Part shown: positions 13,345 to 64,000 of the stretch, piece by piece | Layout: every line of letters begins with the position of its first letter | Position numbering within the stretch: position 1 is the stretch's first letter | Source of the DNA: Alphaproteobacteria bacterium | GTDB taxonomy: Bacteria; Pseudomonadota; Alphaproteobacteria; UBA828 | Assembly: GCA_963422645.2 (NCBI GenBank) | Contig: CAXXVO010000002.1 | Span: forward strand, 128,001-192,000 | Direction: 5' to 3' | DNA length: 64,000 bases | Program-made: the position numbers and the translations under genes | The notes under the pieces: generated by a model | The model's input: only the letters and a program-made list of their open reading frames with translations | Told to the model about the DNA's origin: nothing | The model's database searches: none

Positions 13345-14343
13345 ATGACCGAGCCCGTGACAATCAGGCTGGAGCCCTCCGGCGACAGCTTCACCTGTGG
13401 CCCGGGCGAGACCATCCTGCGCGCTGGGCTCGCGGCGGGCTTCGCCATGCCCTACGAATGCGCGAGCGGAAGCTGCAGCTCGTGCAAGGGGCGGCTGATC
13501 GAGGGCAAGGTGGATCACCTCTGGCCCGAGGCGACCGGGCTGAGCGAGCGCGACCGGCGCAAGGGCGACCGCATCCTCTGCTGCCAGGCGCTGCCTCAGG
13601 GCGACTGCAGGGTCCAGGTGCGCCTCGGCCCGGTGGAGGGTGCGCGGGAAGAGCCCAGGCCTGCGCCCTTTAGCGCCACCGTCGAGACGCTGGAGCGCCT
13701 GGTGCCGGGCGTGATCGCGTTCAGTTGCAGGCCGGCGCAGCCCGTCCCCTTCCTGCCCGGGCAGTACGTGCTGCTGCAGGTACCGGGCGGCGAGCGCCGC
13801 GCCTACTCGATGGCCAACACCGAGGCGGAGACCTTGGACTTCATCGCCAAGGAGAAGCCGGGCGGCCACGCGTCCCGCTATCTCTTCGACGAACTTGCCA
13901 CAGGCGGCACGGTGAACCTGGAGGGGCCCTACGGCCGCGCCTACCTGCGCACCCCGCCGGAGCGCGAGATCGTCTGCGTCGCCGGCGGCTCCGGGCTCGC
14001 GCCGATACTCTCGGTGGTCGAGGGGGCGCTCGCCAGGCCCGATACCCCCGGCGTCCGGCTCTTCTTCGGCGCGAACACGGCCGAGGAGCTCTTCATGGTG
14101 GACGAGATGGAGGCGCTTGCGGCCGCGCACGATCGACTCTCGCTCACGCTGGCCGTCCGCGACGGCGCGCCGGGCGCGGCCACCGGCCTGGTCGGCGATG
14201 TCGCGCTGGCGGCGATGGAAGACCTTGACGACTGCGACTTCTACATGGCCGGCCCGCCGGGGCTGATCGACGCGCTGCTCCGCCCCGTCATGCGCAGCCG
14301 CAAGGCCCGGCCCGAGCGCATCTTCTTCGACCGCTTTTACTAG
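13345..14343 (+). CDS. 2Fe-2S ferredoxin-FAD/NAD reductase (multicomponent monooxygenase reductase-like)
   Basis: CASGSCSSC..CC, RAYS, GPYG, AGGSGLAP, AGPP, FFDRFY. Confidence 0.88.
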   Translation: MTEPVTIRLEPSGDSFTCGPGETILRAGLAAGFAMPYECASGSCSSCKGRLIEGKVDHLWPEATGLSERDRRKGDRILCCQALPQGDCRVQVRLGPVEGAREEPRPAPFSATVETLERLVPGVIAFSCRPAQPVPFLPGQYVLLQVPGGERRAYSMANTEAETLDFIAKEKPGGHASRYLFDELATGGTVNLEGPYGRAYLRTPPEREIVCVAGGSGLAPILSVVEGALARPDTPGVRLFFGANTAEELFMVDEMEALAAAHDRLSLTLAVRDGAPGAATGLVGDVALAAMEDLDDCDFYMAGPPGLIDALLRPVMRSRKARPERIFFDRFY

Positions 14344-15525
14344 TCACCTGGCACTGAAGTAGGGTTCATTGTAGGGTGGCTCTCCGAGTCGGACAGAGGA
14401 GGTCATCTCGATGGCGCGCGGTACGGGACGGCCGCTGGCGGCCCTGGTCTTGAGCGGTGAGGAGCGGTCGTTTCTGGAAGCGCAGGTTCGCCGCCACCGT
14501 GTGGCGCGCTCCATGTCGGATCGCTGCCGCATGATCCTGCTTTGCGCGGACGGGCTTGGCAACAAGGCGGTGGCCGCAGAGATCGGCGTGCACGAACACA
14601 CCGTCGGCAAGTGGCGGAGGCGCTTCGTCAAGGACCGCATCGAGGGTCTGTCGGACGAACCCCGGCCGGGACGGCCGCGGACCATCGCGGACGAGAAGGT
14701 GGCGCAAGTGATCGAGCGGACGCTCACCTCGACGCCTGCGGACGCCACCCACTGGTCGCTGCGCTCGATGGCGAAGGAGGCGGGGCTGTCGCACACGTCG
14801 ATCTGGCGCATCTGGGGCGCCTTCGGCCTGCAGCCCCATCGGGCCGAGACCTTCAAGCTGTCGGCCTATCCGCACTTCGTGGAGAAGGTCCGCGACATCG
14901 TAGGCCTCTACATGTCGCCGCCGGATCGCGCGCTGGTGCTCTGCGTCGACGAGAAGAGCCAGATCCAGGCCCTCGACCGTACACAGCCGGTCCTGCCGAT
15001 GCTGCCGGGCATCCCTGAGCGGCGCACCCATGACTACAAGCGCAACGGCACGACCTCGCTCTTCGCCGCCCTCGACGTTGCCACCGGCTCGGTCATAGGC
15101 AAGTGCTATCGCCGCCACCGGGCCAGGGAGTTCCTCGACTTCCTGAAGGTGATCGATCGCAATGTCCCGGACGGACTGGACATCCACGTCGTCATGGACA
15201 ACTACGCCACCCACAAGACGGCGGGGGTCAAGGCCTGGCTGGCGCGGCGTCCGCATTGGCACGTTCACTTCACGCCGACGTCGGCGTCGTGGATCAACCA
15301 GGTCGAACGCTGGTTCGCCGAGCTGACACGCAAGCAGCTGCAACGCGGGGTGCACCGCTCCACCCTCCAGCTCGAGGCCGACATCCGCGCTTTCATCGAA
15401 ACCCACAACGAAAATCCTCGACCCTTCAGGTGGACCAAATCAGCCGACGACATCCTCGCTGCCGTCAAGCGCTTCTGCCTTCGGGTCGAACAAAACTTAT
15501 GCCACGAACTTTAGATTCAGGTGAC
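14343..15525 (+). mobile_element. IS630 family element, copy 1 (1183 bp)
   Basis: GTCACCTG...CAGGTGAC ends, TA on both flanks. Confidence 0.92.
14411..15514 (+). CDS. IS630 transposase
   Basis: [31 protein letters not shown]. Confidence 0.95.
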
Positions 15526-15527
15526 TA

Positions 15528-16710
15528 GTCACCTGGCACTGAAGCAGGGTTCATTGTAGGGTGGCTCTCCGAGTCGGACAGAGGAGGTCATCTCGATGGC
15601 GCGCGGTACGGGACGGCCGCTGGCGGCCCTGGTCTTGAGCGGTGAGGAGCGGTCGTTTCTGGAAGCGCAGGTTCGCCGCCACCGTGTGGCGCGCTCCATG
15701 TCGGATCGCTGCCGCATGATCCTGCTTTGCGCGGACGGGCTTGGCAACAAGGCGGTGGCCGCAGAGATCGGCGTGCACGAACACACCGTCGGCAAGTGGC
15801 GGAGGCGCTTCGTCAAGGACCGCATCGAGGGTCTGTCGGACGAACCCCGGCCGGGACGGCCGCGGACCATCGCGGACGAGAAGGTGGCGCAAGTGATCGA
15901 GCGGACGCTCACCTCGACGCCTGCGGACGCCACCCACTGGTCGCTGCGCTCGATGGCGAAGGAGGCGGGGCTGTCGCACACGTCGATCTGGCGCATCTGG
16001 GGCGCCTTCGGCCTGCAGCCCCATCGGGCCGAGACCTTCAAGCTGTCGGCCTATCCGCACTTCGTGGAGAAGGTCCGCGACATCGTAGGCCTCTACATGT
16101 CGCCGCCGGATCGCGCGCTGGTGCTCTGCGTCGACGAGAAGAGCCAGATCCAGGCCCTCGACCGTACACAGCCGGTCCTGCCGATGCTGCCGGGCATCCC
16201 TGAGCGGCGCACCCATGACTACAAGCGCAACGGCACGACCTCGCTCTTCGCCGCCCTCGACGTTGCCACCGGCTCGGTCATAGGCAAGTGCTATCGCCGC
16301 CACCGGGCCAGGGAGTTCCTCGACTTCCTGAAGGTGATCGATCGCAATGTCCCGGACGGACTGGACATCCACGTCGTCATGGACAACTACGCCACCCACA
16401 AGACGGCGGGGGTCAAGGCCTGGCTGGCGCGGCGTCCGCATTGGCACGTTCACTTCACGCCGACGTCGGCGTCGTGGATCAACCAGGTCGAACGCTGGTT
16501 CGCCGAGCTGACACGCAAGCAGCTGCAACGCGGGGTGCACCGCTCCACCCTCCAGCTCGAGGCCGACATCCGCGCTTTCATCGAAACCCACAACGAAAAT
16601 CCTCGACCCTTCAGGTGGACCAAATCAGCCGACGACATCCTCGCTGCCGTCAAGCGCTTCTGCCTTCGGGTCGAACAAAACTTATGCCACGAACTTTAGA
16701 TTTAGGTGAC
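15528..16710 (+). mobile_element. IS630 family element, copy 2 (tandem)
   Basis: Near-identical to copy 1, separated from it by one TA (15526-15527). Confidence 0.92.
15596..16699 (+). CDS. IS630 transposase
   Basis: Protein identical to 14411-15514. Confidence 0.95.
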
Positions 16711-17016: not shown

Positions 17017-17111
17017 GTAACTACCCAGGTACCCCGCCGCCAGTTCTGAGTGCGTGCTGATGTTGCTTGCCGTCGGTGCCGTTTCGCCGTCGGCGCGTCG
17101 TTGATCCCCGC

Positions 17112-17140
17112 TTGACTGTATAGGTTCTCTCGCCTATGGG
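17112..17140 (+). promoter_or_regulatory. Putative sigma70-like promoter of the MTase-transposase operon
   Basis: TTGACT-N17-TATGGG; the divergent variant keeps TTGACC-N17-TATGGA at 31681-31709. Confidence 0.5.
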
Positions 17141-17168
17141 TTGCACTCTCGCATGAGAGGAGCAGCCG

Positions 17169-17837
17169 GTGGGGTATTTCGGGTCGAAGGCGACGACCGG
17201 TCTGAGCCAGGCGCTGATTGCGCTGATGCCGCGGCACTCTGTCTATATCGAGAGCCATCTTGGGGGCGGGGCGCTGATGAAGCGCAAGCCTGCGGCCATG
17301 CGCTCGATCGGGATCGACCGCGACGAGCGGGCGCTTGAGGCCTTTGGCTGCGACTACCCGGTGGAGTTGGTGCACGGCTGCGCCCATTCCTTCCTGGCCT
17401 CGTTCCCGTTTCTGGGCCCGGAGCTGGTCTACAGCGATCCGCCCTATCTGCACGCGACCCGGCGTTCGTCGCAGCGCTACCGCTTCGAGTACGAGGAGGC
17501 CGACCACGTCGCGCTCCTCGAACTGCTCAAGGGTCTGCCCTGCCAGGTGATGGTCTCGGGCCACCCGTCTGCGCTCTATGACGAGCTGCTGGCGGGCTGG
17601 CGCCGGCTGGCGCTGCAGGTGACGACCCAGGCCCAGGTGCGGACCGAGGTCGTGTGGTTCAACTTCGCGCCTGACCGGGTGCACTGGGCGAGCTTCGCCG
17701 GCCGGAACTTCACCGAGCGCCAGTGCATCAAGCGCAAGGCGGCCAACTGGGGCCGGCGCTACGAGGCCATGCCGGCGGGCGAACGCCTGGCGGTGCTGGC
17801 CGCGATCATGGCCGTCGAGGCCGACGAGGGTTCGTGA
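17169..17837 (+). CDS. Compact Dam/D12-like DNA N6-adenine methyltransferase
   Basis: YFGSK (motif X), ESHLGGGA (motif I variant), DPPY (motif IV), TEVVWFNF. Confidence 0.82.
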   Translation: MGYFGSKATTGLSQALIALMPRHSVYIESHLGGGALMKRKPAAMRSIGIDRDERALEAFGCDYPVELVHGCAHSFLASFPFLGPELVYSDPPYLHATRRSSQRYRFEYEEADHVALLELLKGLPCQVMVSGHPSALYDELLAGWRRLALQVTTQAQVRTEVVWFNFAPDRVHWASFAGRNFTERQCIKRKAANWGRRYEAMPAGERLAVLAAIMAVEADEGS

Positions 17838-19376
17838 CAGTGTCGCGCTGGCACGAGGACCTCGCTGCCCACGACGAGGCCTTCGCGTGCCTGCAGGACC
17901 TTTTCACCCCACAATCCTTCGCAATGACCGCCGTCAAAGCCATTCGGGAATGGGGCCAGAGGTTGCTGCGCCTGAGCGCGGCCCTGGTCAAGGAGAACGA
18001 CGCGCTGGAGCGGGAGAACGCCCGCTTGCGCGAGCGGATCGCCGAACTCGAGCGCAGCGCCGCGCTCGACAGCACCACCAGCTCCAAGCCGCCGGCCAGC
18101 GACGGTCTGAAGAAGAAGAGCGGTGACCGGGAGAAGCGCACCCGGAGCCAGCGCGGCAAGTCCGACAGGCCCAGTGGCGGCCAGCCGGGCCACAAGGGAA
18201 CTACCCTGGAGCGGACCGCGACGCCCGACCATGTCGTCGATCATGATCCCGTCCGCCTGTGAGGGCTGCGGCGCGCCGCTGTCGGACGCTGACCGTCACG
18301 GAGCCCCCGTCTGCCGGCAGGTCTTCGATGTGCCCGAGCCGCAGCCCCTCGAGGTCACCGAACATCGCGGCCATCGTTGCCTCTGCGCTGCCTGCGGCAC
18401 CGTGACGACAGCCGTCTTCCCGAACGGCGTGAGCGCACCGGTCCAATACGGGCCGCGCATCACCGCGTGGGTGACCTACCTGCTGCACGCTCAGTTCATT
18501 CCCGAGAAGCGGGTCGCCGAGGTCATGAGCGACCTCTTCGCGGTCAAGCTCTCAACAGCCACCATCGTCGCCATGGGAAGGCGCACCGCCCGGCGCTTCG
18601 AGGGCTTCCTCGATCGCCTCGCGGAGATCATCCGCACCGCAGCCCCAGTCAAACACCTCGACGAGACCGGCATCCGCATCGCCGCCCGGACCCATTGGCT
18701 CCATGTGCTGTGCACCCCGTTGCTCACCATCCTGCGCGTCGCCACCGGGCGCAGCCACATCGACGAGAAGCTCAACGGCATCGTCATCCATGACGACTAC
18801 GCCACCTACTTCGCTCTCGAGGGCGTGCGCCACGGGGCCTGCAACGCCCATCACCTGCGCGAGCTCCAAGCCCTCATCGAGATCGAGAAGGAAGACTGGG
18901 CAACGAGCACGCACCGGCTCCTCATCCGTGCCAACAGAGCCGCCCGCTTCGCCCACAAGAACGACCGCGACGTGCCCGCCTCACTGGTGGCCCGCATCTC
19001 GCGAGCCTGGGACCGCATCCTCGAACGTGCCATCGCCTCTCACGAAGAAATGCCACCGCTCCAGACCGGAAAGCGCGGACGACAAAAGCGCCGCATCGGT
19101 CACAACCTCGCCCTCCGACTCCAGAAGTACAAGGAGGGGTGCCTGCGCTTCCTCACCGATCCGCGAACCCCCTTCTCCAACAACGAGGCCGAGCGCGACC
19201 TCCGAATGGGCAAGCTGCGCCAGAAAATCTCAGGCGGCTTCCGCTCGATACAAGGCGCCCGCGACTTCGCAAACCTGCGATCCGTCATCGCCACCGCTCG
19301 AAAACAGCGCTGGAATGTCCTCGAAACCCTGGCGCACCCCGATCCAATCCAGCTGATCCCCGTATTGCGCTTCTGA
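17834..19376 (+). pseudogene. IS66 TnpC-type transposase, +1 frameshift near 18248
   Basis: SSKPPASDG, GGQPGHKG, zinc finger, LDETG, CNAHHLREL, NNEAERDLR; extra C compared with copy B. Confidence 0.88.
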
Positions 19377-19510
19377 AATCCTGCGCTGCTCCGGGAAAGC
19401 GCCGCCTGACCCCTGGCTGGTCAGAACCATCAATCCATCACGTCCGAGTGCTCGGCAGAATCAGACCTGGGCAGTTACATGGCGGCCACAGGACTTTGAC
19501 TTGCATCCCA

Positions 19511-28613: not shown

Positions 28614-31125
28614 CAGACTTCCTGACCTCGTGATGCTGGCTGTTCTGGGCAGCGTGCCGGGAACTCCTTGAATTCTGATACATTTCGGTTGTTTCAGGCG
28701 GTTTTTCGCTGGGTGTCGCGCCCGAGGTCTGATATTATAATTTGATACCAATTGCACGGTCTCAACCATGCCCAGTACCCTCCCAATGTGCCCTCCAGAG
28801 GCGGTCTCGATCGGCAACAGCTGCTTCGCCGTCCTGATCTCGGACGACACCTTCACCTACTTTTCCAACCTCATTCCCTTTGACAGCCACGCCGCCGATG
28901 ACCGCACGGCCATGCTCTTGCGGATCGGCCGCCTCGCGGCGATCAGCGCGGTCTCGCCGCAGGAACTGGCTGACGCTTTCGCTGTCTCGCGCGCGACGGT
29001 GCAGCGCGCACGACGGCGCTACCTGGCCGAGGGCGAAGCGGGGTTCATGAAGCCCCGGCGCGGTCGCGGGCCGTCGGTGTTCACTCCGGAGTTGGCGGAG
29101 AAGGCGACGGCGTTGCTGGCATCGGGCCTGAGCGGCTCTGCGGCGGCCCGGGTTCTCGGCGTGTCAGCGCCATCGGTCAACAAGTGGCGCCGTCAGGGAC
29201 TGATCGGCAACACGGAGGCGGATGGGGAGCCCGGACGCTCAGCGCTGGCTGCGCCGCCTGACGCGGGTGCGGCTCCTGAAGGCCGTGTCGATGAAGAGAG
29301 TACCGGTGCCCCGGGGCCGGAGACGGCGCCGGGGCTGGAAGCGCAGCCGCAAACGGATCGCAGCGCGCGCGATCGGCGGGACCGGCAGGCGCCGATGGGG
29401 CGTGCGACTTGCGATGTTCCGGCTCGGGTTCTGGCCAGTTGTGGACAGGCGGGGCCGGTCGAACCGCAGTTCGCCGCCGCCGCCCGCGGTGTCCGCTTCG
29501 GCGGCGTGCTCGCCGCCCTGCCGGCCCTGCTGAAGGAAGGTCTTCTCTCCGAGACCGGTCTCCTGCCATTGCTGCCGAAGGGCTATTACGGCTTGCCTAC
29601 GATCCTGCTCTTCCTGGCCTTCATGACCTTGGCGCGGGTGCGCAACCCCGAGAGCCTGCGCTACCAGGCGCCGGGCGAATGGGGCGCCATTCTCGGCCTC
29701 GATCGCTGCCCCGAGGTCAAGACGCTGCGCCGCAAGATCGCTCTCATCGCCGACGACGAGGCCGGCGTGCGGGCGTGGCAGCTCGCCCTTGCCAGGCGCT
29801 GGCAAGGCCGACGAGCCGGAGCTCTGGGCGACGCTGGCCATCGACGGGCACGTCAAGGTCTACTCCGGCCGCAAGGGGCGCTTGCCCAAGCACTTCGTCT
29901 CGCGCGAGAAGCTGTGCCTGCCGGCGAGCGCCAGCTACTGGATCAACGCTCTGGGCGGCAAGCCGCTGCTCTGTCTGCACAAGCCGCTGGACCCGAAGAT
30001 GGTCGCGGCCATCGAAGCCGACGTGGTGCCGGCGCTGCAGGAGCTTGGGATCGTTGGCGCCGGGGCGCCGGACCTGACCGCCGAGCATCCCGGCCAGCCG
30101 GCGCTCACCCTGGTCTTCGACCGCGAGGGCTGGAGCCCGGATCTGTTCCGCCGGCTGGCGAGGCGCGGCGTCGCCTGCCTGACCTGGCACAAGAACTTCA
30201 GGGGCGAGGACTGGCCGGCCGAGGACTTCGGCGCGATGACCGTTCCCATTCACGGACCGGCGGCGGACGGCAGCGCCACCATGCGGCTGGCTGAGAAGCC
30301 GGTGACGTTGCCGAACGGCTTCAGGGTGCGCCAGATCCGCCGCCTGCTCGACAACGGCCGTCAGGTGCCGCTGATCACCACCGATCCGCACAAGCCGATG
30401 GCTGAGGTTGCGGGCGCCATGTTCTCGCGCTGGTCGCAGGAGAACTTCTTCAAGTACATGCGTGACGAGTTCAATCTCGACGCCCTGCCGACCCACGAGC
30501 TCGAGCCTCTCGATCCCGCCGCCATGGTCGTCAACCCGCTGCGGCGGGCCTATGACAAGGCAATCCATCGCCTCGACCGCCAGCTTGGCCGCCTGCGCAA
30601 CCGCATCGCCGACACGGCCCGGAAGAAGCAGCCGACGGCGGAACTCAGGAGGGAAGTCAGGGACCTCCAGGATGTCCGCGACATCGTCAGGGCCAGCCGC
30701 AGGGAGACGCCCAAGCACTGCCGGGCCGGCGACCTCGACGAAGCCGAGCAGCTCGATGCCTTGCCCGCGCGCGAGCGCCTCCTCCTCGACGTCATCCGGA
30801 TGATCGCCTACCGCGCCGAAACCCGCATGATGATTCCCGTCATGCAGGCGCAGGGCCACAAGCCCCATCCCCGGAAACTGCTTCAAGCGCTGCTCACCGC
30901 CGATGCCGACATCCTGCCGGATCCTGGCAATGGCCTCCTGCGGGTCCACATTCTTGGCCTCGCAAACGACGCCTGCGACCGTTGGATCGATGCGGTTCTG
31001 AGCGACCTGAACGCCACCGAAACGGTCTTCCCCGGCACCCGTCTGCGCATAGTCTACGACATCGACGGGGCCTCGGAATCCGCGCGGCTCGTGTCACCTA
31101 AAATCAGCAGAGGTCAGGAAGTCTG
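28614..31125 (+). mobile_element. Unclassified (ISNCY-like) IS, 2512 bp
   Basis: 16-bp IR CAGACTTCCTGACCTC; 5-bp TSD ATATT. Confidence 0.88.
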
Positions 31126-31126
31126 A
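28768..31126 (+). pseudogene. Large putative DDE transposase, frameshift near 29804
   Basis: HTH, GLDRCPEVKTLR, IDGHVKVY, VFDREG, RWSQENFFK; the two ORFs join if one base is removed. Confidence 0.75.
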
Positions 31127-31596
31127 TATTGTGACCCGCAAGCCCCAATGTCCCTTGAAGAACCGACAGTCGCGCTTGCTTGTTCGCCGAGGCATCGACG
31201 AGCCACTCCGAGACGAGCGACCCGAAGGGCTCGTCCACCTTGCCCTCGACACCAAGCACCGCAAAACCCTCGCCGTCGCCAATCAGCGCCAGCAGGTCCG
31301 TCTGGCTGGGCCGCCCGCGGGAGCGAAGATCGGTCTCTTTCTCGAAGAAGCCCTCGATAAGCTCCATGCCCCGGAATTCTTCCGCCTGATGCAGGATCGC
31401 ACCCACCTGGTCAGGAATGCCTTTCGCTCCCACCCAGGAACAGGCCAGCTCGTAGGCTGAGTATCCCTTCTTCCAATGCCGCTCCTGCTTCGCCAAGTAC
31501 GGAATTATATCCTCGGGCCTCGTGATCGGCGCGGCAAAGAAGAGTCTATCGGTCATTCGAAAGTGCAATACCACTTGCTTGGAGCAGAAAGATGTT

Positions 31597-31833
31597 GTAA
31601 CTACCCAGGTACCCAATCCTGAGTTGAGGACGGTGATTATGGCGGCGGCCGCGGCCTGGTTCTGCCACCGCGATTGGTTCTTGACCTCATAGAGTTGCGG
31701 GACTATGGACTGCTCTCTCGCGTGACGGGAGCGGTCCATGGGGTATTTCGGCTCGAAGGCGACAGCAGGTCTGTGCCAAGCGCTGATTGCGCTGATGCCG
31801 CCGCACTCCGTCTACATCGAAAGCCACCTTGGG
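31597..31833 (+). mobile_element. IS66-MTase variant, left end plus MTase 5' stub
   Basis: GTAACTACCCAGGTACCC; MGYFGSKATAGLCQALIALMPPHSVYIESHLG from 31738, cut by IS21. Confidence 0.85.
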
Positions 31834-32035: not shown

Positions 32036-32764
32036 TCAGGAGCGGTTCTTGAAGCGCCAGCTCTCGTTGCCGGTCTCGATGATCTCGCAATGATGGGTGA
32101 GGCGATCGAGCAGCGCTGTGGTCATCTTGGGGTCGCCGAAGACGGATGGCCATTCGCCGAAGGCGAGGTTTGTGGTGATGACGATCGAGGTGCGCTCGTA
32201 GAGCCGGCTCATCAGATGGAAGAGCAGCTGCCCACCGGCCTGGGCGAAGGGCAGGTAGCCGAGCTCGTCGAGGATGACGAAGTCGCGGCGGACGAGCTGG
32301 TCTGCAGTGCGGCCCTGGCGTCCGGCGCGAAGCTCGGCCTCGAGGAGGTTGACCAGGTCGACGACGTTGTAGCACCGGCCGCGCGCGCCCTTGCGGATGC
32401 AGGACCGCGCGATGGCGACGGCGAGATGGGTCTTGCCGGTACCGGTGCCGCCGACCAGCACGATGTTGCGTTTGCCCTCGAGGAAGCCGCCGCCGGCGAG
32501 CTCCTGGATCAGGGGCTCGTTGACCGGCGAGGCGGCGAAGTCGAAGTCGGCCAGCTCCTTGACCGTCGGCAGCTTGGCGGAGGCCATCTGGTACTTGATC
32601 GAGCGGGCCCTCTTGTCGGCGATCTCGACCTGCAGCAGCGTACCGATGATCTGTTGCACCGGATGGCGGCGCTTGAGCCCGTCGGCAAGGATGTCGTCGT
32701 AAGCGGCGCGCATACCTGCGAGCTTCAGCTGGGTCATCATCTCCAGCACATCATGACGCTCCAT
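32036..32764 (-). CDS. istB: IS21 helper ATPase IstB
   Basis: [26 protein letters not shown]. Confidence 0.95.
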
Positions 32765-34265
32765 GACCGGCCTCCCTCAGGCTGTCGTAGCGCTGACAGT
32801 CGGCTACCGGCTTGTGGCGAAGCTGCAGGCCCTCGGGCGTCGGGATGATTGCCGGCGGTGCCGGCTGGCGCTGCCGGGCGAGGATGTTGAGCACCACGTC
32901 GGCGCTGCAGGCACCGCAGTCGAGCGTCTCGGCACAGGCCGCCTCAACCGCCTCCAGTCCGTCCTCCAGCACCGCCGCGAGCACCTTGACGAACTGCCGG
33001 TCGCCGTCGTCGTGGCCCGCGAGCCGGGTTCGCAGGCGGCCGAGCGCGTTGGGCAACTGCCAGTCCTTGAAGGGCGCGCCATTGCGTAGCGCGCCGGGCT
33101 TCCGCGTCAGGATCGGCACGTAATGCCACGGATCGTAGACGAACCGGCCGCGCCCGAAGCTGCGGGGGTGCTCGGCAACGGTCTCGCCGTCCTGGCGGAT
33201 GACGATCCGATCGGCATAGGCCCGCACGTCCACCGGCCGGCCGACGGCGCGGGCCGCGACGCTGTACTGGTTGTTGTCGAAGCGCACCAGACAGGTCTTC
33301 GAGACCGACACCTCGCTGGCATGGAAGCCGTCGAAGGGGCCGCGATACGCCATCAGGAAGGGCTGCTCCTCCTCGAACACCTGCCACACCGTCTTGCCCG
33401 GGATTGTCGGATGCGGATGCTTCTTGGCGTCCTCGATGCACCGATCCATCAGCCACTCGTTGATCTCGGCGTAGGAGCGGCCCCGCGGGATGGGCACGAA
33501 CAGGCGGCCGCGAAGGTCACCCACCTGCTTCTCGACCTGCCCCTTCTCCCAGCCAGCCCCTGGCGTGCACGCCACAGGCTCCACCAGATGGTGCGAGCAC
33601 AGCTCCTGGAAGCGGCGGTTGTAGTCCCGCTTCTTGCCCACGAAGATCGTGCTCACCGCCGTCTTCATGTTGTCGTAGATGCCCCGCCGGCAGACCCCGC
33701 CGAAGAAGCGGAAGGCACGCTCGTGCGCCTCGAAGACCATCTCCTGGCTCTCGCGGGGAAAGATCTGGACCAGATACATCCGGCTGTGGCACAGCCGCAT
33801 GTGCGCCGCCTTCACCCTGGTCGTCGCGCCCGACAGACGCGCGTACTCGTGGCTCCAGTCGAACTGGTAGGCCTCGCCGGGATCGAAGATCAGCGGCACA
33901 TAGGCCTGCGCCGGCGACAACAGCCGCCACCGGCGCCGCCAGGCCCTGGCATAGCGGCGAACCGCGTCATAGCCGCCCTTGTAGCCCAGCGACACAAGGT
34001 CTTCATGAATCCGCAGAAGAGACAGCCGATCCTTGCGTGCCTTCTTCTCGTTGGCCTTCAGCTGGCGCTCAAGCTCCTCCACCCACAGCCCAAGCTTCGG
34101 CATCGGCTGGATCTTGCGCTCGTAGCTGTGCGAGGTCGCATCGCCCCGCACCACCTTGCGTATCGTGTTCTTGGAAACCCTCAAATCCCGGGCGAGCTTC
34201 TTGATCGGAACGCCCTTCACCAGATGATCCCGACGGATCTTCGCGATCGTTTCCACAACCAGCAT
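32751..34265 (-). CDS. istA: IS21 transposase IstA
   Basis: [20 protein letters not shown]. Confidence 0.95.
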
Positions 34266-34384
34266 CTCCCCCACCACCCCGTCCGTCCAAACGACGAGGT
34301 GTGTTCATGGACACAAATCCAAGGGGGTCAATTTTGGACGCCGATCACCCCCAATAGGGGGTCACTTTTCCACGCTTAACAACA

Positions 34385-51306: not shown

Positions 51307-52513
51307 GTAACTGCCCAGGTCGTCTGATTTGTCATTTTGGGCCAGTGGATTGAGGCGTTTCTCGTTCGGAGTTGGTGGAAAGGGCTTGACGGGAATTTCG
51401 GGAAATGACTCAACAACGACATGAGCAATCCCGAGTCGCCGCGCGGCCCTTCGACGGGAGCAGCGCCCGAAACGCCCGCGCAGAAGATCGCCCGCCTGGA
51501 GGAGGAGAACGCCCGGCTTCGGGAGGAAAATGCCTGGCTTCGGCAGCAGAACGCGCGGCTGGAAGAGCAAGTCGCGCGTCTCGTCGAGCGCATCGAGGAG
51601 TTGGAGCGCCGTCTCGGCCTCAACAGCGGCAACAGCGGCAAGCCGCCTTCGAGCGATGGGCTGAGGAAGCCGAATTCGAAGCGGCGAACCCGAAGCCTGC
51701 GCGGCAAATCGGGCCGCAAGCCCGGTGGCCAGCCCGGCCACAAGGGCAAGACGCTGCGCCGCGCCGATCACCCGGATCGGGTGAAGGATCACGTCCCGGC
51801 TTCCTGCAAGGGATGCGGTTCGCCGCTTTCGGACGCGGCCAGGGCGGGAACGCCCGTCGCCCGCCAGGTGTTCGATCTGCCCGAGCCGAGCCCCCTGGAG
51901 GTGACCGAGCACCGGGCGCATGCCAAGTGCTGCGGGCATTGCGGGACGGTGACCCGGGCGGCGTTCCCCGACGGGGTGTCGGCGCCGGTGCAGTACGGCC
52001 CGCGCATTGCCGGGGTGGCGGTCTACCTTCAGCACGCTCACTTCCTGCCGGAGGATCGGCTGTCGCAGGTGATGGCCGAGCTCTTCGGCGCGCCGGTGAC
52101 GGCTGCGACGTTGGCGACGATGAGCGAGAGGGCGGCCGAGCGGCTTGCGGGACGCGGCCTTGCACATACAGGACCTGGCGGCGGGCACGGCGCGGGTGAA
52201 ACACATGGACGAGACCGGCTTGCGGATCGGCGGTCAGACGCAGTGGCTTCATGTGATCTGCACGCCGCTGCTGGCGGCGTACCGGGTCAGCGGCAAGCGC
52301 GGCGCCCTGCTCTCGGGTGTCTCCGGCATCGTCGTGCACGATCACTGGAAGCCGTACTTCGCGATGGAAGGGGTGGAGCACGGCCTGTGCAACGCCCATC
52401 ACCTGCGGGAGTTGCAGGCGCTGGTGGACATCGAAGGGGAGGCTTGGGCCCGGCGGATGCAGCAGCTCCTGCGCCGAGCCAATCGCGCCGCCCGCATCGC
52501 GCTGGACAAGGAT
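51307..52513 (+). mobile_element. IS66-type element without MTase; transposase (from 51421) frameshifted near 52145 and truncated
   Basis: GTAACTGCCCAGGT end; SGKPPSSDG, GGQPGHKG, HMDETG, CNAHHLREL. Confidence 0.85.
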
Positions 52514-54394: not shown

Positions 54395-54415
54395 GGCCGC
54401 GAGCAGGCTGCCGGC

Positions 54416-55636
54416 TCACATCCCGTCGATCGTCGCGGCGTCGGCCGCAGGCTCGTAGAACACGAAGTCCTCTGCGTCGAGATTGTCCGCGGTGGTGTCC
54501 GCGAGCCGGATCGTGCCCCCGCCATGGCTCGTGAGGTCGATCACCGCCGTGTTCGCGTAGTTCGTGATTTGCAGATCGTCGAAGCCCGAGATCTCCGTGA
54601 ACGCGGAGAGGTCGATCCTGTCCTGGCCGCCCGCGAAATCCACGACCGTGTCGTAGCCGCACTCCGCCCCGAAGGCGAAGACATCCGCGCCCTCGCCGCC
54701 CCTGAGCTCGTCGTCGCCCTCGCCGCCGTGGAGGAAGTCGTTCTCGGTCCCGCCGTCGAGCTTGTCGTCGCCCTCGCCACCGAAGAGCCGGTCGCGCCCC
54801 GCGCCGCCTTCGACGGTGTCGTCGCCCTCCTCTCCGAAGAGGTCGTCGGCGCCTTCCTTCCCCTCGATCCGGTCGTTGCCTTCGCCGCCCAGGATGGTTT
54901 CAGGCGCACCACCGCCGATGAGGCTGTTGCCGTCCGAATCGCCGAGCACGAGCGAGGAATTATGGTCGTGGATGGACGGCGGGGTTCCGTCGGGCAGGGC
55001 GAAGTTCAATGCCGAGAGTTCGGCCGCGGCGAGACCCCTGAGCTCGATCGAGCCGTCGAGTGCTGCGTGCGTGATGCAGACCCCACTCCCGTCCTCCTTG
55101 TCGACGATGGAGAGGTCGGTGAACGCGATCGCCTCGGGCAGCAGGCGCAGGTCGATCACGTCCTTGTTCACCTCGAATTCGTAGATGACGTCGTCGCCCG
55201 CTTCCGCGCTGTAGACGAAGGTGTCCGCGCCGCTTCCGCCAATCATGGTATCGTCGCCGGACCCGCCGATCAGGACGTCGTTTCCGACGCCGCCGCGCAG
55301 GGTGTCGTTGCCCTCACCGCCCCACAGGTGATCGTTGCCGACGAAGCCGACGAGGTGGTCGTCGCCGGTGTCCCCCAGCAAGAAGTCATCGCCGGTGCCG
55401 CCGTTGACGAAATCGTTGCCGCTCCCGCCGCGCACGGCGTCGCTGCCTCCTCCGCCGCGCACGACGTCGTCGCCCGATCCGCCGAGCACCACGTCGTGCC
55501 CCCCGTTGCCCTGCAGGGCGTCGCTGTGGCTGCCGCCTTCGATGACGTCGTTGCCGCCGTGGCCGTCGACGGTGTCATGGCCCTCGCCGCCGATCAGGAT
55601 GTCGTCTTGCTGCGTCGCTTCATTCCGGTTGGCCAT
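54416..55636 (-). CDS. Hemolysin-type (RTX) calcium-binding protein 1
   Basis: Many GGxGxDxL repeats; C-terminal DFVF. Confidence 0.9.
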   Translation of the reverse strand: MANRNEATQQDDILIGGEGHDTVDGHGGNDVIEGGSHSDALQGNGGHDVVLGGSGDDVVRGGGGSDAVRGGSGNDFVNGGTGDDFLLGDTGDDHLVGFVGNDHLWGGEGNDTLRGGVGNDVLIGGSGDDTMIGGSGADTFVYSAEAGDDVIYEFEVNKDVIDLRLLPEAIAFTDLSIVDKEDGSGVCITHAALDGSIELRGLAAAELSALNFALPDGTPPSIHDHNSSLVLGDSDGNSLIGGGAPETILGGEGNDRIEGKEGADDLFGEEGDDTVEGGAGRDRLFGGEGDDKLDGGTENDFLHGGEGDDELRGGEGADVFAFGAECGYDTVVDFAGGQDRIDLSAFTEISGFDDLQITNYANTAVIDLTSHGGGTIRLADTTADNLDAEDFVFYEPAADAATIDGM

Positions 55637-55717
55637 CGCTGCCTCCTGTTGGCTTGTCCATGTGTTTGATTCGATATCGGGCCGAGCGGGGAATTCTCCT
55701 CGGCACCGAGAAACCCG

Positions 55718-56992: not shown

Positions 56993-57056
56993 CGCTGCCT
57001 CCTGTAGGCTGCTCTCGATACCTGTCCCCTAAGTCGGTCCGAGCGAGGGCGATTGC

Positions 57057-57085
57057 CAATAGCGTTTTCCTAATGGTTCCATAAG
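57057..57085 (-). promoter_or_regulatory. Conserved upstream motif (copy at 58541-58569)
   Basis: 23/29 identical; both copies lie 65 bp upstream of an RTX ATG. Confidence 0.55.
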
Positions 57086-57210
57086 GTTAGGCATAATGGG
57101 CGGCCGCGTTGGCATAGCCGATGGCCGGCGACGTCGTCGGCCGCCGGTCTGGGCAGAGCAGGCCTTCGCTAGACTATGCGCGCCTTAGGGTGAGTGCCGG
57201 GCTGGAGCCG

Positions 57211-59928: not shown

Positions 59929-60131
59929 TGCCGAGACATAGGCTGACCAGCGCGCGCTGGTCAAATTCGTTCATTGCTTGTAACTACCCAGGTACCCCGC
60001 CGCCAGTTCTGAGTGCGTGCTGATGTTGCTTGCCGTCGGTGCCGTTTCGCCGTCGGCGCGTCGTTGATCCCCGCTTGACTGTATAGGTTCTCTCGCCTAT
60101 GGGTTGCACTCTCGCATGAGAGGAGCAGCCG

Positions 60132-60800
60132 GTGGGGTATTTCGGGTCGAAGGCGACGACCGGTCTGAGCCAGGCGCTGATTGCGCTGATGCCGCCGCAC
60201 TCTGTCTATATCGAGAGCCATCTTGGGGGCGGGGCGCTGATGAAGCGCAAGCCTGCGGCCATGCGCTCGATCGGGATCGACCGCGACGAGCGGGCGCTTG
60301 AGGCCTTTGGCTGCGACTACCCGGTGGAGTTGGTGCCCGGCTGCGCCCATTCCTTCCTGGCCTCGTTCCCGTTTCTGGGCCCGGAGCTGGTCTACAGCGA
60401 TCCGCCCTATCTGCACGCGACCCGGCGTTCGTCGCAGCGCTACCGCTTCGAGTACGAGGAGGCCGACCACGTCGCGCTCCTCGAACTGCTCAAGGGTCTG
60501 CCCTGCCAGGTGATGGTCTCGGGCCACCCGTCTGCGCTCTATGACGAGCTGCTGGCGGGCTGGCGCCGGCTGGCGCTGCAGGTGACGACCCAGGCCCAGG
60601 TGCGGACCGAGGTCGTGTGGTTCAACTTCGCGCCTGACCGGGTGCACTGGGCGAGCTTCGCCGGCCGGAACTTCACCGAGCGCCAGTGCATCAAGCGCAA
60701 GGCGGCCAACTGGGGCCGGCGCTACGAGGCCATGCCGGCGGGCGAACGCCTGGCGGTGCTGGCCGCGATCATGGCCGTCGAGGCCGACGAGGGTTCGTGA
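60132..60800 (+). CDS. Dam-like DNA adenine methyltransferase (copy B)
   Basis: Differs from 17169-17837 at two residues. Confidence 0.82.
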   Translation: MGYFGSKATTGLSQALIALMPPHSVYIESHLGGGALMKRKPAAMRSIGIDRDERALEAFGCDYPVELVPGCAHSFLASFPFLGPELVYSDPPYLHATRRSSQRYRFEYEEADHVALLELLKGLPCQVMVSGHPSALYDELLAGWRRLALQVTTQAQVRTEVVWFNFAPDRVHWASFAGRNFTERQCIKRKAANWGRRYEAMPAGERLAVLAAIMAVEADEGS

Positions 60801-62077
60801 CAGTGTCGCGCTGGCACGAGGACCTCGCTGCCCACGACGAGGCCTTCGCGTGCCTGCAGGACCTTTTCACCCCACAATCCTTCGCAATGACCGCCGTCAA
60901 AGCCATTCGGGAATGGGGCCAGAGGTTGCTGCGCCTGAGCGCTGAGCGCGGCCCTGGTCAAGGAGAACGACGCGCTGGAGCGGGAGAACGCCCGCTTGCG
61001 CGAGCGGATCGCCGAACTCGAGCGCAGCGCCGCGCTCGACAGCACCACCAGCTCCAAGCCGCCGGCCAGCGACGGTCTGAAGAAGAAGAGCGGTGACCGG
61101 GAGAAGCGCACCCGGAGCCAGCGCGGCAAGTCCGACAGGCCCAGTGGCGGCCAGCCGGGCCACAAGGGAACTACCCTGGAGCGGACCGCGACGCCCGACC
61201 ATGTCGTCGATCATGATCCGTCCGCCTGTGAGGGCTGCGGCGCGCCGCTGTCGGACGCTGACCGTCACGGAGCCCCCGTCTGCCGGCAGGTCTTCGATGT
61301 GCCCGAGCCGCAGCCCCTCGAGGTCACCGAACATCGCGGCCATCGTTGCCTCTGCGCTGCCTGCGGCACCGTGACGACAGCCGTCTTCCCGAACGGCGTG
61401 AGCGCACCGGTCCAATACGGGCCGCGCATCACCGCGTGGGTGACCTACCTGCTGCACGCTCAGTTCATTCCCGAGAAGCGGGTCGCCGAGGTCATGAGCG
61501 ACCTCTTCGCGGTCAAGCTCTCAACAGCCACCATCGTCGCCATGGGAAGGCGCACCGCCCGGCGCTTCGAGGGCTTCCTCGATCGCCTCGCGGAGATCAT
61601 CCGCACCGCAGCCCCAGTCAAACACCTCGACGAGACCGGCATCCGCATCGCCGCCCGGACCCATTGGCTCCATGTGCTGTGCACCCCGTTGCTCACCATC
61701 CTGCGCGTCGCCACCGGGCGCAGCCACATCGACGAGAAGCTCAACGGCATCGTCATCCATGACGACTACGCCACCTACTTCGCTCTCGAGGGCGTGCGCC
61801 ACGGGGCCTGCAACGCCCATCACCTGCGCGAGCTCCAAGCCCTCATCGAGATCGAGAAGGAAGACTGGGCAACGAGCACGCACCGGCTCCTCATCCGTGC
61901 CAACAGAGCCGCCCGCTTCGCCCACAAGAACGACCGCGACGTGCCCGCCTCACTGGTGGCCCGCATCTCGCGAGCCTGGGACCGCATCCTCGAACGTGCC
62001 ATCGCCTCTCACGAAGAAATGCCACCGCTCCAGACCGGAAAGCGCGGACGACAAAAGCGCCGCATCGGTCACAACCT
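60797..62077 (+). pseudogene. IS66 transposase with 7-bp duplication near 60940, truncated
   Basis: CTGAGCG duplicated relative to copy A; cut by the solo IS end. Confidence 0.85.
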
Positions 62078-62165
62078 CAGACTTCCTGACCTCTGCTGAT
62101 TTTAGGTGACACGAGCCGCGCGGATTCCGAGGCCCCGTCGATGTCGTAGACTATGCGCAGACGGG
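62078..62165 (-). mobile_element. Second solo right end of the 28614-31125 IS
   Basis: About 88 bp identical (reverse complement) to the element's right end. Confidence 0.85.
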
Positions 62166-62177
62166 TGTTGTTAAGCG
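62166..62177 (+). mobile_element. IS21-type terminus stub TGTTGTTAAGCG
   Basis: Same 12-mer as 20385 and the IS21 end; directly abuts an IS66 IR. Confidence 0.6.
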
Positions 62178-62342
62178 GTAACTGCCCAGGTACCCCCTCT
62201 CTCTTATGGAACAAGCCAGTTCCTTTTGCGTCAACGCCCCCACGCCGCGGGGGTGCCTACTCTCTTGAGCGCGAGAGGATGATGAACGCCGCGTCGCGAA
62301 CAAGATGAGAGGACAGCGATACTCAGGATGAGCCGGAGAAGT

Positions 62343-63881
62343 TCAGGAGCGCAGTATAGGGATCAGCTGCATCGGTTCCGGGTGCGCCAGGATTTGCAGG
62401 ATGTTCCAGCCTTGCTTTCGAGCGGTGACGATGACGCTGCGCATTCCGGCGAAGTTGCAGGCGCCTTGCAGGGAGCGGAAGCCGCCTGAGATCTTCTCAT
62501 GCACTTTGTTCATACGGATGTCACGCTCCGCCTCGTTATTCGTGAACGGCGTGCGCAGGTCGGTGAGGAAGCGCAGGCAGCCCTCCTTATGCTTTTGAAG
62601 GCGGCGCGCGAGGTTGTGGCCGATGCGGCGTTTCTTTCGCCCTCGCTTTGCGATCTGGAGCGGCGGTTGGGCCTCATGGAAGGCGATGGCTTCTTCGAGG
62701 ATACGGTCCCATGCCCTTGAGATGCGGGCCACCAGGGAGGCGGGGACTTGACGGTCTTTCTCACGGGCGAAGCGGGCGGCCCTGCGCGCGCGCTGAAGCA
62801 GGCGGTGCATGCTCGCCGCCCATTCCTCCTTCTCGATGTCGATCAGGGCCTGGAGTTCGCGCAGGTGATGTGCGTTGCAGGCGCCGTGGCGGACGCCCTT
62901 GATGGTGAAGTAGGGGGCGAAGTCGTCGTGGACGAGGATGCCTTTCAGGTTCTTTTCGACATCGCCGCGTCCCTCGCCGATGCGCAGGACGGTGAGCAAC
63001 GGGGTGCACAGCACATGGAGCCAGCGGGTACGGGCGGCGATACGCAGGCCGGTCTCGTCGAGGTGCTTGACCGGCGCCTGCGTGCGGATCAGATCGGCGA
63101 CATGGTCGAGGAAGCCCTCGAAGCGCTGCGCTGTGCGCCGGCCCATGGCGGCGATCGTGGCAGTGGAGATGGACACCGCGAAGATGTCGCTCATGAGTTC
63201 GGCCAGACGCTTCTCGGGCACGAACTGGGCGTACAGCAGGTAACTCACCCAAGCGGTGATGCGAGGGCCGTACTGGACCGGGGCGGTGACGCCCGGCGGG
63301 AAGGCGGCTCGTGTCAGCGTGCCGCATGCGCCGCAGAGGCAGCGATGGGCGCGGTGTTCGGTGACCTCGAGAGGCTGCGGCTCGGGTACGTCGAAGACCT
63401 GCCGACAGGCGGGCGCGCCTTGCCGGTCGGCGTCCGAGAGCTCGACGCCACAGCCGGAACAGGTGGAGGGGTGGTGATCGACGACACGGTCCGGGCTGTC
63501 GCTCCGCGCGAGGGTGGTTCCCTTGTGGCCGGGCTGGCCGCCACTGGGCCCGCCGGACTTTCCGCGCTGGCTTTGGGTGCGCCTCTGGGCTCCGCTTTTC
63601 TTCTTGAGCCCGTCGCTGGCGGGGGGCTTGCTGCTTGTGGTGCTGTTGAGGGCCGCGCTGCGCTCGAGTTCGGCGATGCGCTCGCGCAGGGCCGCGTTCT
63701 CCTGCTCGAGTGCGGCATTTTCCCGGGCGAGCGCGGTGGCTGATCGCAGCAGCCCCTGCCCCCATTCCCGGACGGCAACGACGACAGTGGTTGCGAGGGA
63801 TGATGGCTCGAGAAGCTCCTTCAGGCAGCAGAAGGCCTCGTTACGGGCGGCGAGGTCTTCGTGCCAGTGCGACACCGTCAC
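62343..63881 (-). CDS. IS66 TnpC-type transposase, intact (512 aa)
   Basis: All motifs in one frame; GTG start overlaps the MTase stop. Confidence 0.92.
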   Translation of the reverse strand: MTVSHWHEDLAARNEAFCCLKELLEPSSLATTVVVAVREWGQGLLRSATALARENAALEQENAALRERIAELERSAALNSTTSSKPPASDGLKKKSGAQRRTQSQRGKSGGPSGGQPGHKGTTLARSDSPDRVVDHHPSTCSGCGVELSDADRQGAPACRQVFDVPEPQPLEVTEHRAHRCLCGACGTLTRAAFPPGVTAPVQYGPRITAWVSYLLYAQFVPEKRLAELMSDIFAVSISTATIAAMGRRTAQRFEGFLDHVADLIRTQAPVKHLDETGLRIAARTRWLHVLCTPLLTVLRIGEGRGDVEKNLKGILVHDDFAPYFTIKGVRHGACNAHHLRELQALIDIEKEEWAASMHRLLQRARRAARFAREKDRQVPASLVARISRAWDRILEEAIAFHEAQPPLQIAKRGRKKRRIGHNLARRLQKHKEGCLRFLTDLRTPFTNNEAERDIRMNKVHEKISGGFRSLQGACNFAGMRSVIVTARKQGWNILQILAHPEPMQLIPILRS

Positions 63882-64000
63882 GTGTCTTCGGCCTCGACGG
63901 CCATCATGGCGGCGAGCACGGCGAGGCGTTCGCCCGGCGGCAAGGCCTGGTAGCGCCGGCCCCAGTTGGCTGCCTTGCGCTTGATGCGCTGGCGGTCGGT
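63878..64000 (-). CDS. Dam-like MTase, 3' part
   Basis: TDRQRIKRKAANWGRRYQALPPGERLAVLAAMMAVEAEDT*, homologous to the copy A C-terminus. Confidence 0.82.
   Translation of the reverse strand, partial: TDRQRIKRKAANWGRRYQALPPGERLAVLAAMMAVEAEDT

Follow-up and report, generated by a model that had tools for sequence, protein, structure and literature searches.

A Dam-like gene of the Upf31 family is carried with its own promoter by IS66-family insertion sequences and probably helps to control them

We analysed a 64-kilobase (kb) stretch of an alphaproteobacterial genome (hereafter the window; G000:C3:128001-192000, from an assembly of 5.9 Mb in 23 contigs) that contains four copies or stubs of IS66-family insertion sequences (IS). 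They belong to two subfamilies, type A (2461 base pairs, bp) and type C (2508 bp). The subject of this study is the gene lying upstream of the transposase gene in these elements, here termed ORF1, which encodes a protein of 221-222 amino acids (aa) related to the plasmid protein Upf31 and predicted to share the catalytic core of the DNA adenine methyltransferase Dam. The features of the window that concern it are as follows.

17017..19478, plus strand: copy A, type A IS66-family element, 2462 bp (from the sequence and the genome alignment)
17017..17030, plus strand: left inverted repeat of copy A, GTAACTACCCAGGT
17122..17150, plus strand: promoter-like cassette of copy A, as read from the sequence
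17122-17127, plus strand: -35 hexamer TTGACT of copy A, followed by half-site TATAGG at 17129-17134
17143-17148, plus strand: half-site CCTATG of copy A, overlapping the -10-like TATGGG at 17145-17150
17169..17837, plus strand: ORF1 of copy A, 222 aa, Upf31 family, predicted Dam-like core without target-recognition domain
17834..19376, plus strand: IS66-family transposase gene of copy A, with a GTG start at 17834
19465..19478, plus strand: right inverted repeat of copy A, reverse complement of GTAACTGCCCAGGT
31597..31833, plus strand: type C left-end stub, 237 bp, with inverted repeat, promoter cassette, and ORF1 codons 1-32
59980..62078, plus strand: copy B, type A element positions 1-2093
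62178..64000, minus strand: copy C, type C element, extending past the window edge

An earlier note on this DNA had placed GTAAC ends at 17017, 31597, 59980, and 62178, and all four were confirmed. As that note had also read, the stop codon of ORF1 overlaps the GTG start of the transposase gene (GTGA) in copies A, B, and C; with these overlapping reading frames, ORF1 and the transposase gene form one unit. The transposase consists of DUF6444, zf-IS66, and DDE_Tnp_IS66 regions. Copy A is one base longer than the 2461 bp found in 11 of the 14 other full-length type A copies, and no 8-bp target duplication was found at its flanks. Its transposase gene is split into two frames (17834-18262 and 18123-19376), with a one-base length difference near 18248. 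Copy B, earlier described as near-identical to copy A, is indeed 100% identical to 17017-17316 from 59980 onward and 99.5% identical over element positions 1-2093; it stops at position 2093, and its 3' part is replaced by another element. The ORF1 of copy B is intact (60132-60800, 222 aa), and its transposase frame is disrupted by a 7-bp length difference. Copy C has the right inverted repeat at 62178-62191 (GTAAC at 62178), the target duplication CGCTTAAC, the 3' end of ORF1 at 63878-64000, and the only intact transposase gene in the window (62343-63881, 512 aa). The type C stub has a GTAAC end and an ORF1 start codon (ATG) at 31738, and is cut at 31833 by an IS21-type insertion (open reading frames, ORFs, of 508 aa and 242 aa within 32036-34277, minus strand). 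Copy C and this stub had been thought to diverge separately from copies A and B. Copy C does represent another subfamily, but the stub corresponds to the left 237 bp of type C and is not a separate variant; the window therefore holds two subfamilies, not three. An ORF with a DUF6946 domain (31104-31739, minus strand) extends into the stub.

A tblastn search of the 5.9-Mb genome with ORF1 gave 91 matches, 75 of them full length, and 73 of these 75 had no internal stop codon. Fifteen full-length copies of type A (ORF1 approximately 99-100% identical to that of copy A) and 36 of type C (86-87% identical) were aligned. The inverted repeats GTAACTACCCAGGT and GTAACTGCCCAGGT, starting with 5'-GTAA, were present in all of them (15/15 and 36/36), and perfect 8-bp target duplications flanked 11/15 type A and 22/36 type C copies. 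Such recurrence goes well past what chance would give. ORF1 lies within the boundaries marked by the duplicated targets in both types, as a passenger gene does. Several type C copies without a duplication had swapped flanks, which is expected after recombination between copies. Eleven of the 15 type A copies were 2461 bp long; variants of 97% and 91% identity measured 2434 and 2427 bp, and ORF1 was open in the latter (tblastn). An ORF1 of 221-222 aa together with a 513-aa transposase was found in 13 of the 15 type A copies, and a long transposase frame in 34 of the 36 type C copies. The transposase scored 289.7 bits against the IS66 model NF033517 (cutoff 180) and matched PF03050 at E 4.4e-41. 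No tnpA or tnpB accessory genes were found upstream of it; ORF1 was the only upstream ORF, and the Pfam search of it returned PF02086 only (E 0.013). We concluded that the element is an active IS66-family insertion sequence family of the single-transposase (ISBst12-like) kind. The earlier assignment to IS66 thus holds by the NF033517 score, the GTAA ends, and the 8-bp duplications. Metatranscriptome contigs from four runs in three studies included relatives of the element, 85-99% alike and two of them along the whole length, and one contig crossed the ORF1-transposase junction; such contigs reveal neither transcript start nor strand and do not prove transcription.

A third relative is found in the window (approximately 51585-52500) and genome-wide, with 66 full-length copies of 1888 bp. 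It has a single ORF, 8-bp duplications, and GTAACTGCCCAGGT as its terminal repeat; its full-length copies lack both ORF1 and the promoter dyad described below. Its transposase is 55-57% identical to those of types A and C and lacks approximately 50 N-terminal residues that these possess. On the transposase tree it is sister to the A/C clade, nearer than the other ORF1-bearing lineages, and the presence of ORF1 is therefore scattered on that tree.

The ORF1 protein of the window had no match in Pfam at E<0.01. With a looser threshold, it scored 15.6 bits (E 0.013, cutoff 22) against PF02086, the D12 methyltransferases, and its score against TIGR00571 (dam) was 27.1 bits (cutoff 114.85). It matched phrog_56, 'DNA methyltransferase', at E 4.6e-20 and was labelled D12 methylase in ESM Atlas. 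Relatives of similar length are numerous: at least 2873 proteins at E<=1e-3 in one database, where all 120 among the matches listed were at least 69% identical, and 5949 cluster representatives at E<=1e-3 in a second, 479 of them at E<=1e-30. Of the 31 full-length members that were aligned (38-87% identity to ORF1), 27 matched PF02086 at E<=0.01. Ten residues were invariant (G5, H23, G32, D90, P91, P92, H113, S130, G178, and R184, 31/31), and Y93 was kept in at least 90% of the members. The alignment retains motif I (E-x-[HF]-L-G-x-G-A; ESHLGGGA in ORF1), DPPY, and a basic C-terminal motif, ERQRIKRKA-x-RW. DPPY was found in 117/118 close homologues and in 104/110 family representatives of at least 200 aa.

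The profile of this alignment matched DpnM (E 2.4e-9) over two separate stretches: DpnM 28-74 is covered by profile positions 16-62, and DpnM 169-265 by positions 64-158. The approximately 95 residues between them (DpnM 75-168) have no counterpart in ORF1 in this alignment; from Dam structures, we take them to be the target-recognition domain. An AlphaFold2 model of ORF1 (mean pLDDT 90.9, pTM 0.85) superposed with its residues 1-167 on E. coli Dam with Z 17.6 and a root-mean-square deviation of 2.1 Å, 147 residues being matched across Dam 8-270. The Z scores were 17.3 for T4 Dam, 16.7 for DpnM, and 13-14 for generic class I methyltransferases. The model has extra C-terminal helices at 181-200 and 203-221. 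A homodimer prediction scored 0.29 against a mark of 0.42, a value that has no bearing on dimerisation either way. From the profile alignment to DpnM and the superposition, ORF1 is predicted to consist of the catalytic core of Dam, with no Dam recognition domain, and a basic helical hairpin after it. The gene had been called a DNA adenine methyltransferase in the earlier note; the Dam-like core, motif I, and DPPY bear out the relationship, and the scores below the Pfam and NCBIfam cutoffs and the missing target-recognition domain do not agree with the full designation.

Beyond this genome, ORF1 relatives of 68-98% identity were collected from 80 loci in approximately 24 assemblies, nearly all metagenome-assembled. 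An IS66-type transposase match started within 600 nucleotides (nt) downstream of ORF1 in 71 of the 80 loci, in agreement with the earlier proposal that the arrangement is not a one-off capture. Where ORF1 could be located, a long ORF started 4 nt before the ORF1 stop, at the GTG of GTGA, in 49 of 72 sources, and in 63 of 72 the ORF1 stop carried the string GTGA; gaps of 30-131 nt occurred in distant lineages. In three further IS66 lineages (L105, L107, and L110), ORF1 was found within inverted repeats.

The upstream regions from this genome and the 80 loci gave 30 distinct sequences. The motif TTGAC-N2-3-YATAG-N8-12-CTAT was present in 24 of these, from GC-rich and AT-rich lineages, and the spacer sequence between the half-sites varied freely. 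In its own genome, the strict dyad pattern occurs 79 times, which is near the copy number of ORF1; no YATAG dyad was found at the element ends. The TTGAC-N-TATGG promoter-like motif that had been pointed out in the window is thus real and conserved well beyond this genome. A consensus scan gave TTGACA-17-TATACT (11/12) at the homologous site of L110 and TTGACA-17-TATTGT (10/12) at that of L107. The left half-site (YATAG) lies directly 3' of the -35 hexamer and is conserved though dispensable for a promoter, and the right half-site overlaps the -10 hexamer, TATG being common to both. By its sequence, the dyad has the layout of an operator within a promoter. The portable cassette considered below comprises a predicted sigma-70-type promoter, the dyad YATAG-N8-12-CTAT(G) between and over its hexamers, and ORF1. 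In the ORF1 leader (17140-17174) and its counterparts at other loci, CTCT could form a short stem with the GGAG of the ribosome-binding site; a hairpin in the 5' untranslated region that would hide this site was rejected as too weak (consensus -2.25 kcal/mol, 8 pairs).

The -35 hexamer is also the insertion site of another element. Several type A copies (L116, at G000:C10:125226-130228, L117, and L118) are interrupted exactly at TTGACT by an unclassified IS of approximately 2.5 kb, and element positions 106-111 (6 bp) are duplicated there; 1022-bp and 148-bp deletion derivatives of it occupy the same site. The IS is represented in the window at 62079-62177, where its end follows copy B, and at approximately 29789-31126. 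Four composites of a type A element with the IS in its -35 hexamer have perfect outer 8-bp target duplications, and hence moved after the promoter had been disrupted, presumably using transposase supplied in trans.

The cassette was found in one IS701-family element and in at least four IS66 lineages, whose transposases share only 24-34% identity; between elements that differ to this extent in the transposase, ORF1 is 63-87% identical. Thus, L107 compared with L105, L108, and L110 shows 84-87% identity in ORF1 and 24-25% in the transposase, and L109 compared with the clade of this genome shows 73-78% and 30-34%, respectively. The corresponding values were 81% and 81% for L105 and L108, and 63-65% and 50% for L109 and the L105 group. 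Approximately unbiased (AU) tests rejected congruent groupings for both the transposase alignment (p 0.0016) and the ORF1 alignment (p 3.7e-26); these p-values are post hoc, since the groups were named after the identity matrix had been seen. The comparison of the two trees suggested in the earlier note therefore showed that they disagree and that the arrangement has moved between lineages.

The IS701-family carrier is a 2785-bp unit, 95-99.9% identical at six loci of four assemblies (L095, L096, L100, and L102-L104; L102:3446-6230), with its own inverted repeats of approximately 20 bp and a CTTAG flank repeat. Inside it, ORF1 and its usual promoter with the dyad are followed by what is left of an IS66 transposase start and then by a gene for a 490-aa DDE_5 (PF13546) transposase. 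By this composition, the unit is an IS701-family element that acquired the ORF1 cassette, so that the role of the cassette is not tied to IS66 chemistry. The unit also holds a 176-aa ORF on the reverse strand without a Pfam match. With these six loci, three others make up the nine of the 80 that have no IS66-type match downstream. At L097, an IS630-like gene follows a transposase-start remnant, and L098 is similar (by blastn comparison with L097 only); at L106, ORF1 has no transposase downstream.

The ratio of nonsynonymous to synonymous substitution rates (dN/dS) of ORF1 was 0.08-0.32 in 12 of 12 pairs, and that of the transposase was 0.10-0.40 in the eight pairs in which both rates were estimable and unsaturated. 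The check on selection asked for earlier thus gave purifying selection on ORF1 in every pair, and the view of a Dam-like gene fixed in the element, coupled to the transposase, and maintained by selection is supported. The same comparison within the genome was abandoned, because the 36 type C copies contained too few variant alleles (3 in ORF1 and 21 in the transposase gene). Between L105 and L107, ORF1 has a dS of approximately 1.0 and a dN of 0.083, which indicates that the cassette has been conserved over the long term and was not merely transferred recently. Types A and C differ in synonymous divergence, with 0.31 in ORF1 and 0.63 in the transposase gene (17169-17837 and 17834-19376 in copy A). 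As the value for ORF1 is half that for the transposase gene, this suggests that the ORF1 region was exchanged between the subfamilies by recombination or gene conversion.

Matches at E<=1e-20 were found in 5 of 401 sampled genomes of the same class and in none of 3 of the same family, a patchy distribution that is typical of a mobile element. Among the 80 loci, record titles refer to Alphaproteobacteria, Gammaproteobacteria, Dehalococcoidia, Binatia, Tectimicrobiota, Planctomycetota, Uhrbacteria, and Bacillota; this spread needs caution, because the binning of multi-copy repeats is error-prone. A literature search, with ISfinder, TnPedia, and supplements outside its scope, found no published description of an IS66 or IS701 element with an Upf31/Dam-like accessory gene. 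The accessible part of PMC3925955, considered as a prior description, concerns other genes.

On plasmids, tblastn found ORF1 relatives in 198 records, all less than 60% identical to ORF1, and 134 of these records were typed conjugative. Among the matches was upf31.0 of IncP-1β plasmids. Over the full length, the Upf31 protein of pBP136Km is colinear with ORF1 and shares 43% identity with it (224 vs 222 aa, E 4e-62), and it retains DPPY and motif I; the upf31 promoter has repeated motifs directly at its TTGACA -35 hexamer. The homologues stood alone in all seven plasmid contexts inspected, three of which were near relaxase or ArdC-like (zincin-like metallopeptidase) genes. An ISSp1 (IS1380-like) transposase gene beside one plasmid homologue was considered as a further IS association and dismissed as an incidental insertion, because this neighbour is absent beside an identical protein of another plasmid. 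Of the relatives of ORF1, Upf31 alone has been studied so far. The accessible part of that work (bioRxiv 10.1101/2024.02.05.579024) reports that Upf31 gave no protection of GATC sites and no kinetic signature of methylation in sequencing by the single-molecule real-time (SMRT) method in E. coli ER2796, a strain free of methylation. It also reports that Upf31 represses its own promoter, that it probably binds inverted CAGCATCG repeats, the likely operator, and that its C-terminal domain is predicted to contact KorB.

Since the cassette has been passed between unrelated elements, it probably helps to control the elements carrying it. We propose that ORF1 governs transposase expression by acting at the conserved dyad of its promoter, and we give this proposal an even chance of being right. 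ORF1 would bind the dyad and limit its own expression and that of the transposase, and transposase output would thus be bounded as the copy number rises. ORF1 would probably also methylate adenine in or near the dyad, which would render the switch sensitive to replication. Because such a cassette would control the promoter and not the chemistry of transposition, it would work with any downstream transposase, and this would account for the way it has been exchanged among IS lineages and families. The conserved DPPY and S-adenosylmethionine (SAM)-binding motifs argue for chemistry by ORF1. The negative results in the accessible part of the Upf31 study and the absent recognition domain argue against a general methyltransferase.

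Several observations weigh against this proposal. Six of the 30 distinct upstream regions do not have the strict motif, and a scan for the sigma-70 consensus called no promoter in copy A, where the -10 hexamer is TATGGG. As part of the right half-site is the -10 hexamer itself, the left half-site alone shows conservation that does not depend on the promoter. The centres of the half-sites lie approximately 15 bp apart, an unusual spacing for a simple dimeric repressor. The CAGCATCG operator given for Upf31 in the accessible part of its description differs from the ORF1 dyad, so that the analogy is one of architecture only. The 1888-bp relative has reached 66 full-length copies with neither ORF1 nor dyad, and spread thus does not require the cassette. 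A purely repressive role is incomplete as an explanation, given the near-invariant motifs for catalysis and SAM binding. Binding, repression, and methylation by ORF1 are all predictions from sequence and from the analogy with autorepression by Upf31.

Other roles of ORF1 must be weighed against this one. Its place upstream of tnpC and overlapping it is that of the classical IS66 accessory genes, and the transposases of types A and C have approximately 50 N-terminal residues that are missing from the ORF1-less relative; both facts would fit an IS66-transposase-specific cofactor of transposition that replaces TnpA/TnpB and marks or bends the ends or binds the transposase. However, the same cassette is found in an IS701-family element with an unrelated DDE_5 transposase, it has been swapped between IS66 lineages with transposases only 24-34% identical, and no YATAG dyad was found at the ends of the element. 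Full-length homologues stand alone on plasmids, and the ORF1-less relative has the same inverted-repeat termini and 66 full-length copies. In view of the IS701-family carrier, the plasmid homologues, and the success of the ORF1-less relative, we consider a cofactor role improbable. It is still harder to believe that ORF1 is a passenger without benefit, retained only by its position between the promoter and the transposase gene: purifying selection acts on it in every pair, 73 of 75 full-length copies are intact, the catalytic motifs are kept, and several transposase lineages acquired the cassette independently. Insertion sequences with passenger genes do exist, and the ORF1-less relative is about equally successful in this genome; these facts leave such an explanation only a very slight chance.

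A serious rival, though a less probable one, is the view of the earlier note that ORF1 is mainly an orphan N6-adenine DNA methyltransferase that is active and travels as cargo. Such an enzyme would methylate host and element DNA broadly or at a short motif and would serve to protect IS-bearing DNA from restriction after transfer or to change the host methylome, and any promoter control would be ordinary autoregulation; the earlier note also considered that it may regulate transposition by methylating the ends of its own element. It would leave unexplained why the promoter dyad is retained and why ORF1 keeps its constant place directly upstream of the transposase gene. Motif I and DPPY are kept across the family, the modelled fold is Dam-like, and the match to the phrog_56 'DNA methyltransferase' (E 4.6e-20) agrees with such an activity; yet the whole target-recognition domain is absent, and ORF1 stays under the curated cutoffs of PF02086 (15.6/22 bits) and TIGR00571 (27.1/114.85 bits). 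The stand-alone relatives on plasmids (42-53% identity), 134 of 198 records being conjugative and three of seven contexts lying near relaxase or ArdC-like genes, also speak for it, and low-specificity relatives of Dam exist in the Hia5 family, according to the accessible part of PMC3299994. Upf31, however, keeps DPPY, and the accessible part of its description gives neither a methylation signal in E. coli ER2796 nor GATC protection.

The proposed action of ORF1 at its own promoter can be carried further, to a self-contained epigenetic switch, which we regard as rather unlikely. The C-terminal helices would aim ORF1 at the YATAG/CTATG dyad, which it would methylate. The fully methylated promoter would be shut, and hemimethylation after passage of the replication fork would permit a short burst of ORF1 and transposase. 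If true, this switch would amount to the Dam control known from IS10 and IS50 in a portable form that works in hosts without Dam. It would also explain the repeated uptake of the cassette by IS66 and IS701 elements, and could explain the apparent inactivity of Upf31 when assayed without its cognate sites.

Further repeats were observed in the window. The left flank of copy A is a broken IS5-like transposase gene. At 14339-16699, two IS630-like copies lie 1185 bp apart and are 100% identical over the compared stretch of 300 nt; the element has a 367-aa ORF with DDE_3 and helix-turn-helix domains. At 54400-58200 (plus strand), three diverged direct repeats of approximately 1.35-1.49 kb, 60-78% identical and with an internal 54-bp periodicity, are probably part of a large repetitive gene.

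The accessory genes of IS66 elements are poorly understood, and the one carried by the present elements is of another kind, its product having an enzyme fold that can be recognised. Elements with ORF1, belonging to several IS66 lineages and including one IS701 element, have expanded to dozens of copies per genome, and the enigmatic Upf31 family thereby gains a second, very abundant genomic context. That ORF1 is a regulator bound to the promoter and built on a methyltransferase fold, perhaps a replication-coupled switch that the element itself encodes, is a hypothesis open to simple tests. The annotation 'DNA adenine methylase' calls for caution, since it would heavily inflate host methylome and restriction-modification counts in IS-rich symbiont genomes.

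Passenger genes in insertion sequences have precedents, as do accessory regulators in IS families. The ISBst12-like group of the IS66 family has a single ORF, encoding the transposase only. The present elements resemble this group in the DDE_Tnp_IS66 transposase with DUF6444 and zf-IS66, the GTAA repeats, and the 8-bp duplications; the nearest plasmid-borne transposases, from Bradyrhizobium, cyanobacteria, Bacillus, Geobacillus, and Deinococcus, are less than 50% identical. They differ from it in having a second, upstream, overlapping Upf31/Dam-like gene with its own conserved promoter and dyad. Classical IS66 and IS679 have accessory reading frames upstream of a DDE transposase, with overlapping stop and start codons. 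An accessory frame upstream of the transposase and the stop/start overlap are likewise present here, whereas ORF1 is unlike the classical accessory proteins and there is one accessory gene instead of two.

With Dam, T4 Dam, and DpnM, ORF1 shares the fold of the catalytic domain in the model (Z 16.7-17.6), motif I, and DPPY; unlike them, it has no recognition domain of approximately 95 residues and is predicted to have an additional C-terminal helical hairpin (181-221). Enzymes of the Hia5 type are, in the accessible part of PMC3299994, Dam-related, borne by mobile elements, demonstrably active, and provided with DPPY and FxGxG motifs. ORF1 resembles them in its relation to Dam, its location on mobile elements, and these two motifs, but Hia5, as described there, keeps a divergent target-recognition region at approximately 80-170 that ORF1 does not have. 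Upf31 of IncP-1β plasmids such as pBP136 and R751 shares with ORF1 43% identity, size, DPPY and motif I, and the promoter repeats beside the -35 hexamer. As far as the accessible part of its description goes, it is a stand-alone plasmid gene with another operator sequence, and nothing here corresponds to KorB, its proposed partner. ORF1, for its part, lies within transposable elements, coupled to the transposase.

In IS10/Tn10 and IS50/Tn5, adenine methylation in the transposase promoter couples expression to replication. The dyad described here overlaps the promoter hexamers in the same way. IS10 and IS50 rely on the Dam of the host and on GATC, whereas the present element would bring its own Dam-like protein together with its own site.

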